31,239 nt of DNA, from IMG/VR virus record IMGVR_UViG_2671180673_000015. The stretch is one strand, 5' to 3'. Source of the stretch: a virus (Duplodnaviria > Heunggongvirae > Uroviricota > Caudoviricetes). The translations under genes were made by a program, and so were the position numbers. Below are positions 29,753 through 31,239 of this stretch, in pieces (positions within the stretch are counted from its first letter, which is position 1; every line of letters begins with the position of its first letter). The notes below the pieces were generated by a model, which worked only from the letters and a program-made list of their open reading frames with translations, was not told the origin of the DNA and did no database searches.

Positions 29753-29899
29753 GATTCCTCCTTGCTGCCAGTCGCAACCATTTTTTATCAACCAGGCTTG
29801 TCAGCGCCAGTGATATAAGACGGTAATTCACCATTTGGATTGTCCGCTCCACCCAACATGTTGTTTCCTTAAGGTTCTCACACCAGAAAGGACATCAAC

Positions 29900-31072
29900 A
29901 TGCTGAGCAGAGAGGACTTTTACATGATAAAGCAAATGCGCCAGCAGGGCGCGTACATTGTCGATATTGCGACTCAGATTGGTTGCTCTGAACGGACGGT
30001 CAGACGCTACCTCAAATACCCTGAACCGCCAGCCAGAAAGACCCGCCACAAACTGGTTAAGCTGAAACCGTTTATGGATTACATCGACATGCGCCTGGCA
30101 GAGAATGTCTGGAATAGTGAGGTTATCTTTGCGGAGATTAAGGCAATGGGTTATACGGGCGGACGTTCCATGCTGCGTTACTACATCCAGCCCAAACGTA
30201 AAATGCGTCCGTCAAAAAGAACAGTTCGCTTCGAAACTCAGCCTGGATACCAGCTCCAGCACGACTGGGGCGAAGTTGAGGTGGAGGTTGCCGGGCAACG
30301 GTGCAAAGTTAACTTTGCGGTTAATACGCTGGGGTTCTCCCGCCGCTTCCATGTCTTCGCCGCACCAAAACAGGATGCTGAGCATACCTACGAATCACTG
30401 GTTCGCGCCTTCCGCTACTTCGGTGGTTGTGTGAAAACGGTGCTGGTTGATAACCAGAAGGCTGCGGTGCTGAAGAATAACAACGGGAAAGTCGTGTTCA
30501 ACTCCGGATTCCTGTTGCTGGCCGACCACTATAACTTCCTGCCACGGGCATGCCGTCCACGCAGGGCCAGAACAAAAGGTAAGGTTGAGCGGATGGTGAA
30601 ATACCTCAAGGAGAACTTCTTCGTTCGGTACCGCAGGTTCGACAGCTTCACTCATGTTAATCAACAACTGGAGCAATGGATAGCCGATGTGGCTGACAAA
30701 CGGGAACTTCGCCAGTTCAAAGAAACGCCGGAACAGCGCTTCGCGCTGGAGCAGGAACATCTGCAGCCGTTACCGGATACGGACTTCGATACCAGTTACT
30801 TCGACATCCGCCATGTGTCCTGGGACAGCTATATCGAGGTTGGTGGTAATCGTTACAGCGTTCCCGAAGCGCTGTGTGGTCAGCCGGTATCGATACGAAT
30901 ATCGCTGGATGACGAGTTGCGGATCTACAGTAATGAGAAACTGGTGGCCTCACATCGCCTCTGTTCGGCATCGTCTGGCTGGCAGACAGTGCCGGAGCAT
31001 CACGCCCCGCTCTGGCAGCAGGTCAGTCAGGTGGAACATCGACCACTGAGTGCCTATGAGGAGCTGTTGTGA
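29900..31072 (+). CDS. istA: IS21-family transposase IstA (390 aa)
   Basis: N-terminal helix-turn-helix (MLSREDFYMIKQMRQQGAYIVDIATQIGCSERTVRRYLK) and DDE integrase-core signature (...QLQHDWGE...VLVDNQKAA...RPRRARTKGKVER...) characteristic of IstA. Confidence 0.9.
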   Translation: MLSREDFYMIKQMRQQGAYIVDIATQIGCSERTVRRYLKYPEPPARKTRHKLVKLKPFMDYIDMRLAENVWNSEVIFAEIKAMGYTGGRSMLRYYIQPKRKMRPSKRTVRFETQPGYQLQHDWGEVEVEVAGQRCKVNFAVNTLGFSRRFHVFAAPKQDAEHTYESLVRAFRYFGGCVKTVLVDNQKAAVLKNNNGKVVFNSGFLLLADHYNFLPRACRPRRARTKGKVERMVKYLKENFFVRYRRFDSFTHVNQQLEQWIADVADKRELRQFKETPEQRFALEQEHLQPLPDTDFDTSYFDIRHVSWDSYIEVGGNRYSVPEALCGQPVSIRISLDDELRIYSNEKLVASHRLCSASSGWQTVPEHHAPLWQQVSQVEHRPLSAYEELL

Positions 31073-31239
31073 TGCATGAGCTGGAAGTCCTGCTGAGTCG
31101 CCTGAAAATGGAGCATCTGAGTTATCACGTTGAAAGCCTGCTGGAACAGGCAGCTAAAAAAGAGCTGAACTACCGGGAGTTCCTGTGCATGGCGCTACAG
31201 CAGGAATGGAACGGCAGACATCAGCGCGGTATGGAGTCC
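31072..31239 (+). CDS. istB: IS21-family helper ATPase IstB, N-terminal fragment (truncated by window end)
   Basis: ATG overlaps the istA stop (TGATG); MHELEVLLSRLKMEHLSYHVESLLEQAAKKELNYREFLCMALQQEW... IstB-like N-terminus. Confidence 0.85.
   Translation, partial: MHELEVLLSRLKMEHLSYHVESLLEQAAKKELNYREFLCMALQQEWNGRHQRGMES

Follow-up and report, generated by a model that had tools for sequence, protein, structure and literature searches.

The final stretch of the window—by which we refer to the whole of the 31,239 nucleotides analysed here, from the virus record IMGVR_UViG_2671180673_000015 (Caudoviricetes)—carries part of a transposable element next to a block of phage genes that includes the late antiterminator Q, and the question raised by this locus is which element that is, what it interrupted, and what its presence might entail for the transcription of Q. 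Our main reading, to which we would assign a probability of about 0.88, is that a complete IS21 transposed into the ninE gene of a lambda-like prophage located at the lambda attachment site and there duplicated the sequence GGCT, in what would be an ordinary insertion. For the right end of the element, along with everything past position 31239, we extrapolate from two sister genomes, whose overlap with the window shows differences at 1–2 bases. The coordinates of the features are collected in Table 1.

Table 1. Features of the Q–ninE segment and of the IS21 copy within the window (positions are those of the window).
Feature	Position	Strand	Basis
OmpC/NmpC-like porin gene	27225-28307	+	
Q-type late antiterminator quuD, 127 aa, intact	28497-28880	-	PF06530 (Phage_antitermQ), E=3.1e-53
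ylcG, between Q and rusA, intact			
rusA, 120 aa, intact	29103-29465	-	PF05866; 100% to the strain 582 protein
ybcO, 96 aa, intact	29462-29752 (ATG 29750-29752)	-	PF07102, E=2.8e-42
Orphaned ninE 3' end, about codons 41-56 plus stop	29745-29798	-	empty-site genomes annotated with an intact ninE
Left copy of the 4-bp target-site duplication, GGCT	29795-29798	.	GGCT at both IS ends in sister genomes
Left terminal inverted repeat L1, TGTCAGCGCCA	29799-29809	+	10/11 bases vs right end
Internal terminal repeat L2, TGTCCGCTCCA	29841-29851	+	IS positions 43-53; 9/11 vs L1
istA transposase, 390 aa, intact	29900-31072	+	ORF; Pfam rve, Mu-transpos_C_2, HTH (HTH_23); NF033546
istB, first 56 codons, helper AAA+ ATPase; cut by window end	31072-31239	+	sequence

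The host element is, on its sequence, an E. coli prophage of the lambda type integrated at the lambda attachment site, and the window covers it from the tail fibres through to the nin region: the att core of lambda, GCTTTTTTATACTAA, lies at window positions 91–105, and in the sister genomes that core adjoins ybhB and the bio genes. The genes ybcN, ninE, ybcO, rusA, ylcG, and Q are on the - strand, along which the early-right transcript from pR runs; and the nin order ybcN-ninE-ybcO-rusA-ylcG-Q, on one strand and extending from the replication genes to Q, was found in strain 582, in DLI.6n, and in PhiR26_1.

Regarding the identity of the inserted DNA, window positions 29799–31239 on the + strand correspond to positions 1–1441 of the 2131 of IS21, which left two-thirds of the element comprises the left terminal repeats, the whole of istA, and 56 codons of istB, the remainder being located past the window end. 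IstA matched the IS21-family transposase model NF033546 (NCBIfam) with 284 bits against a cut-off of 160, and its gene has a second in-frame start—Met9, at 29924—corresponding to the cointegrase form. The istA stop overlaps the istB ATG (TGATG at 31070–31074). The 56-residue piece of IstB in the window gave a weak match to the IstB N-terminus, and the complete protein (265 aa, from strain 582) scored 302.6 bits with PF01695 and 301.9 bits with NF038214; with the complete IstB from that sister locus, the element thus has the two consecutive, overlapping genes istA and istB of the IS21 family. Its terminal repeats are of the 5'-TG...CA-3' type and have internal copies, as is also the case in that family: the right end, seen in the sister genomes and read as the reverse complement, is TGTCAACGCCA, which sequence coincides with L1 at 10 of 11 bases, and multiple terminal repeats have been described as a trait of the IS21 family (PMC10122671).

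The complete element measures 2131 bp in strain 582, and the window portion is identical to it over the shared IS bases. That copy is, in turn, 99.9% identical over 2131 bp to the IS21 of the IncP plasmid pBS228 from Pseudomonas aeruginosa, where the element is located between parE and aphA. The two nucleotide differences consist of a missense change in IstA (Met52Leu, resulting from a C in place of an A at window position 30053) and a synonymous change in istB; residue 52 is Met in other copies, and the Leu52 allele is at the same time widespread, the exact-protein look-up with the window's IstA having listed 201 blocks of the collection. Because only those two nucleotides separate the element from the pBS228 copy, with its IncP-alpha context beside aphA and parE, we consider that the element is IS21 itself, beyond mere membership in the family. 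IS21 is the prototype of that family and resides on IncP-alpha plasmids such as R68, RP4, and pBS228, the plasmid group in which it was first described.

As to the left boundary, the alignment of the phage PhiR26_1 to the window ends precisely at 29798, the base before IS21. A boundary 7–9 bp further to the left, at which the alignments of other IS21 copies had hinted, was rejected: the flanks of those copies are unrelated and have duplications of their own (GCAT, CAGC, ACGT), so that the similarity there may be ascribed to chance. A preliminary description of this DNA had recognized an IS21-family element 46 bp upstream of ybcO, which assignment is borne out by the profile matches and by the full-length identity; its start at 29753, for its part, directly adjoins the ybcO ATG on the - strand, and the element, positioned on the + strand, properly begins at 29799.

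Those 46 bp between IS21 and the ybcO start turned out to be the 3' end of ninE, since the element sits within that gene, after codon 41 of 56, and not in an intergenic spacer. The earlier wording, an insertion upstream of ybcO with no gene named as having been hit, had therefore missed the disruption of ninE, an intact copy of which spans the empty site. When the flanks were rejoined with a single GGCT (400 bp), the resulting sequence was 100% identical to that of many E. coli genomes, and at a coverage of at least 80% the rejoined empty site was present in 2933 genomes, with ybcO, ninE, and ybcN annotated there. The wild-type NinE has 56 residues, and the ninE stop overlaps the ybcO start; on the far side of the element, comparison of the wild-type and the fusion translations predicts a product composed of NinE residues 1–41 plus 15 IS-encoded residues, and PGAP flags ninE as partial in strain 582. 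The Shine–Dalgarno sequence of ybcO (AAGGAGG) is intact and was kept within the ninE remnant. Four-base-pair target duplications accompanied all 13 of the 13 IS21 copies inspected, representing 12 different sites, and at the present site the ends and the duplication, whose identification had been envisaged in the preliminary description, are those of a 2131-bp element with matching inverted repeats and GGCT on both sides in the sister genomes. The phage should not suffer from the loss of NinE, given that lambda can do without its nin region, as in the nin5 deletion.

Among 5426 complete E. coli genomes, the ybcO–IS junction occurred in strain 582 only (NZ_CP120568.1; 1 mismatch in 1940 bases). 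A third genome with both junctions, GCA_050196015.1, was reached via the exact IstA look-up and differs from the window by 1 base in the 4.3-kb overlap, and the exact 41-nt left junction had no match in the genome-contig and metagenome-contig collections scanned. The same insertion is accordingly present in at least three genomes—the source of the window, strain 582, and GCA_050196015.1—with IstA carrying Leu52 in all three. The shared junctions together with that residue point to a common descent of the insertion, which is, by all appearances, inherited within a small clade and, being common to at least three genomes, could be used as a lineage marker. Strain 582 contains five identical IS21 copies, three of which are inside prophages, and from those five identical copies we conclude that IS21 has been active in the lineage.

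The preliminary description was also right in having the IS separate the Q/rusA/ybcO block from the early genes, since in the sister genomes with identical junctions ninE', ybcN, ren, P, O, cro, and cI are found beyond the element. In strain 582, two small ORFs and a TagO-like gene follow ninE' and ybcN and precede a ren pseudogene, P, and O, after which the place of cII is taken by a gene with a YdaT domain, followed by cro, cI, kil, gam, bet, and exo; the order and orientation of all these early genes correspond to those of lambda. GCA_050196015.1 has a further lesion, a break in ybcN located 393 bp past the right end of the IS, with a group II intron in the vicinity. A complete element flanked by intact and correctly oriented nin genes, with an uninterrupted path from the promoter to Q, had been named in that description as the finding that would speak against its view. 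The complete IS and the oriented nin neighbours were indeed found, but ninE is broken and 2.1 kb of IS lie in the path to Q.

The prophage exhibits other damage besides the insertion. The amber codon in G to which the preliminary description had referred is present, as TAG at codon 34 (14591–14593), and because the closest G alleles elsewhere—99.8% identical—are annotated as intact, the amber codon is real and private to the source strain. In the comparison with strain 582, for which 37 proteins were queried, two tail-fibre proteins without a match being left out, the structural and lysis genes matched in the window had intact counterparts there, except for G. The relationship between the two prophages is mosaic: near-identity from 24500 onward, 5–24% divergence in patches of the tail genes, and 91–118 differences per 500 bases at 10000–11500. 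The DLI.6n prophage, which shares the ren pseudogene with strain 582, has lesions of its own, namely, ISCro1 beside the capsid gene and two IS3-family copies, one located between ren and P and the other near xis. The term decaying prophage that had been applied to this DNA is hence a fair one for the lineage as a whole, in view of the relatives with other insertion sequences and with the ren pseudogene, and a lineage slowly accumulating damage would be a reasonable interpretation.

What the insertion would mean for Q depends on the transcript from pR. The istAB genes (+ strand) are directed away from ybcO and opposite to the transcription from pR to Q, and IS21 places 2.1 kb of antisense, untranslated RNA between the two. 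The pR transcript would have to cross that segment, where it would be open to termination by Rho if the polymerase did not bear the phage's processive-antitermination modification; and the translational coupling between ninE and ybcO would be lost. A polarity of the insertion on Q is consequently plausible, and the expression of Q would most likely be reduced or delayed, not necessarily abolished. Terminator-like sites on the antisense strand of the IS numbered 5 versus the 4.5 expected from shuffling, and a search of antisense IS21 for a strong intrinsic terminator returned none, yielding weak hairpin-plus-U sites alone; the best of these, GCGCC-N5-GGCGC followed by AUUUGCUU (window 29938–29952, - strand), is itself weak. 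The antisense IS RNA has a C/G ratio of 1.2–1.6 over about 1 kb, and being moderately C-rich it could therefore be a substrate for Rho. With respect to antitermination, neither the sister prophage nor the deposited phage PhiR26_1 has an N-like ORF in the interval from pL to kil, and the searches gave no similarity to the HK022 put sites and no Rfam match in the window or in the strain 582 locus. A boxA-like sequence, CGCTCTTTAACAA, is present after cro; and the pL leader folds as a long hairpin, although that fold is not significant (z = -1.8).

If, as one possibility, the polymerase from pR were antiterminated and read through the IS, the timing of Q would be little changed and the loss would be that of the dispensable NinE, so that the insertion would be effectively neutral—an outcome that we regard as a serious contender, if somewhat short of an even chance. 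Lambdoid early transcription is normally termination-resistant, and in HK022 the antitermination is RNA-based. The deposited genome of that same phage contains IS903 within the early-left region, and therefore an IS in such an operon need not kill the phage. The dispensability of the nin region, the intact state of the ybcO ribosome-binding site and of all the genes downstream, and the lack of a strong terminator in the element likewise favour neutrality; and the extra 2.1 kb would still leave the genome within the lambda-like packaging size, the relative PhiR26_1 having 48.2 kb. An efficient read-through is, however, an assumption, inasmuch as the searches for an N-like ORF, for put similarity, and for an Rfam match recognized no antitermination device.

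If, alternatively, the IS fully blocked the transcription from pR before it reached ybcO, rusA, and Q, there would be no Q and the late genes would stay off, as the preliminary description had contemplated, and the prophage would be locked in place. This second possibility we judge to be on the unlikely side. The 2.1 kb of untranslated and moderately C-rich RNA between ybcN and ybcO and the hairpin-plus-U site mentioned above are in its favour, as are the scan for an alternative promoter-like site upstream of Q within the block, which detected none, and the retention of the insertion in at least three genomes of a prophage that has suffered other damage. Against a full block stand the normal resistance of lambdoid early transcription to termination and the IS903 carried by HK022, along with terminator-like counts that are at the level of chance and do not include a strong intrinsic site. 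Were the insertion strongly polar, the locus would constitute one more IS-immobilised prophage, a kind already well documented.

A further proposal, that the ninE::IS21 allele is a retained "grounding" lesion through which Q depends on a read-through of 2.1 kb and late induction is damped or blocked, strikes us as improbable. If it were true, expression would continue from the cargo genes with promoters of their own, which encode the OmpC-like porin and the Iss/Bor lipoprotein, and the persistence of the insertion within a small clade while the structural genes were exchanged by recombination would be explained.

Quite improbable, too, is an activating insertion, in which an outward IS promoter would drive ybcO and rusA, and with them Q, as in the rus-1 and rus-2 alleles of the K-12 prophage DLP12. 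A precedent does exist, in that an IS2 or IS10 upstream of rusA turns on that normally quiescent gene (PMC1636454), and the left-end tip of the present element read outward is CTGACA, which matches the -35 hexamer at 5 of 6 positions. Nevertheless, inspection of the 46-bp ninE remnant found no acceptable -10 hexamer at 16–18 bp downstream of CTGACA, and a consensus scan, crude and liable to overlook an unconventional outward promoter, gave no promoter-like site on the - strand at the left end of IS21 that would read towards ybcO, the total of such sites being at chance (4 versus 5.4 expected). In IS21 the promoter is split, with a -10 at the left end reading to istA and a -35 at the right tip reading outward, and is strong only in tandem copies (PMC10122671); the documented outward -35 is thus at the end opposite to ybcO, and istAB is transcribed away from that gene. 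Both parts are recognizable here: a -10-like GATATAAG at IS21 positions 14–21, reading inward from the left end, and, in the sister genomes, a TTGACA at the right tip, pointing away from Q and antisense into ninE' and ybcN. The copies at this site in the sister genomes are single and non-tandem. A hybrid istA promoter formed by the flanking phage DNA and the left-end -10 was considered and rejected, the -35 position being occupied by CCAGGC or AACCAG, neither of which resembles TTGACA; with no -35 partner upstream of that -10, the single IS21 copy would probably be weakly expressed and stable. At the right junction, an outward promoter of the hybrid type was rejected for want of an acceptable -10 hexamer at 16–18 bp, and its direction would in any event be away from Q. 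The suggestion in the preliminary description that Q might be expressed from an IS-derived promoter accordingly runs counter to the orientation of istAB, to the inward left-end -10, to the outward -35 at the far end, and to the empty scan; IS21 would appear to give no promoter towards Q, and the idea is unsupported.

Finally, that the junction is a chimeric assembly join at a repeated IS has a negligible probability: although the IS copies are multi-copy repeats prone to misjoins, as with the five identical ones in strain 582, the same two junctions—the right one with GGCT and the other half of ninE—recur in two assemblies that are independent of each other and of which one is a complete genome.

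The ordinary transposition of IS21 into ninE is then the reading that we retain, and as such the locus is an instance of something already known, a dispensable phage gene hit by a well-characterised insertion sequence. Its value lies mainly in annotation, in that the exact element, its ends, the duplication, and the target gene are now fixed, and that the idea of the IS driving Q is corrected.

Among known systems, the phage PhiR26_1 (PV340555) has the same gene order, from cI-cro-O-P-ren through ybcN-ninE-ybcO-rusA-ylcG-Q to the porin, lysis, head, and tail genes, and is 94.7–95.2% identical to the window; the DLI.6n and VR50 prophages, at the lambda attachment site, also share that order, and the empty site of DLI.6n is 100% identical. 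All three differ from the present prophage in being without an IS21 in ninE. The rus-1 and rus-2 insertions of K-12 DLP12 likewise lie upstream of rusA within the nin segment ninE-ybcO-rusA-ylcG-quuD, and there IS2 and IS10 activate rusA transcription (PMC1636454). The IS is here directed away from rusA and has no evident outward promoter, so that, by the consensus scan, the resemblance is one of location only; moreover, the host prophage is near-complete, lambda-like, and at the lambda attachment site, as opposed to the DLP12 remnant. The IS903 in the early-left region of HK022 is alike in being an IS inside an operon normally transcribed by a termination-resistant polymerase, and in the classic lambda IS insertions the polarity of an IS in the early operons was overcome by the N function. 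The closest parallel with regard to the element itself is the IS21 of the IncP-alpha plasmids, which has the same 2131 bp, the overlapping istA (390 aa, with the Met9 start) and istB (265 aa), the TGTCA...TGACA ends, the internal repeats, the 4-bp duplication, the left -10 box, and the TTGACA at the right tip; the copy described here differs from the plasmid one in being chromosomal and inside a prophage, and in having the IstA Met52Leu substitution and one synonymous change in istB.

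The prophage carries an exact match to the lambda att core GCTTTTTTATACTAA at window positions 91-105 (none expected by chance). Immediately outside it the sister genomes have ybhB and the bio genes; the prophage thus occupies the lambda attachment site, and its tail-fibre end faces the bio side. When window positions 9400-24500 were compared with strain 582 (L005/L001), a sister genome with the same ninE::IS21 junction, we counted 91-118 base differences per 500 bases at 10000-11500, which stretch holds L, M and the start of H, and 49 at 14500, within G; from 24500 to the end, the total was 11. 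This patchy divergence of the tail genes, together with the near-identity of what follows, shows that the same IS21 insertion is present in prophages whose tail genes were swapped by recombination. In GCA_050196015.1 (L016), a third genome with the junction, colinearity with strain 582 stops 393 bp rightward of the IS, within ybcN; the DNA past that breakpoint (L016 5424-7173) contains a group II intron (Rfam Intron_gpII, 65 bits, plus a reverse-transcriptase ORF), with about 500 bp separating the breakpoint from the intron's domain V/VI.

The preliminary description had cited an amber codon in G, the gene for the tail assembly chaperone, as a sign of a decaying prophage, and an in-frame TAG is indeed present at codon 34 (window 14591-14593, minus strand). 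The nearest G alleles elsewhere share 99.8% identity across 561 bp and carry the annotation of an intact gpG; the nonsense codon is therefore private to the source strain. G excepted, those structural and lysis genes that could be matched to strain 582 counterparts are intact. Lesions in this prophage differ strain by strain: in DLI.6n, which carries the same resident prophage without IS21, an ISCro1 (IS66 family) adjoins the capsid gene, and the prophage also contains two copies of the IS3 family. In DLI.6n and strain 582 alike, ren is a pseudogene. The porin and iss/bor genes are prophage cargo, whose expression would continue regardless of the fate of Q, the porin gene being followed 3' by a terminator-like hairpin of its own (window 28446-28463).

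Features of the prophage and its relatives
Feature	Location	Strand	Remark
G, tail assembly chaperone gene	window 14273-14692	-	
iss/bor lipoprotein gene	window 25157-25447		intact
OmpC/NmpC-like porin gene	window 27225-28307	opposite to neighbours	intact; between Q and lysis genes
IS elements of DLI.6n prophage	L008 19271-21886, 35998-37211, 47337-48565		
Prophage IS21 copies, strain 582	ninE; lysis genes/Nu1 gap; beside dicB and ydfE		first: same insertion as in the window; second: another lambdoid prophage

Strain 582 harbours five IS21 copies (L009-L013), three of them prophage-borne, and since all five are identical in sequence and each has a separate 4-bp duplication, they indicate recent IS21 activity in that lineage. 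At window 30053, residue 52 of IstA is Leu (CTG), where the copies of pBS228, a pUTI89-like plasmid and NCTC86 have Met (ATG); judged by position against the published IS5376 structure, residue 52 falls in the linker that joins the two HTH domains of the N-terminus. The Leu52 allele is common: 201 blocks in the protein collection list it.

As to early antitermination, no N-like ORF was found between the pL-like promoter and kil in either the sister prophage (L001 19290-19400, 21020-21500) or PhiR26_1 (L006), a deposited phage with an immunity region of 99.4% identity. Similarity to HK022 put was absent, and neither the window nor L001 had any match in Rfam; a boxA-like CGCTCTTTAACAA lies 3' of cro, and a hairpin with an 11-bp stem (CATCGCAACG...CGTTGCGATG) opens the pL leader. 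In the HK022 reference genome itself, an IS903 is annotated within the early-left region (L007 26601-27657), which element provides a precedent for an IS within a phage early operon.
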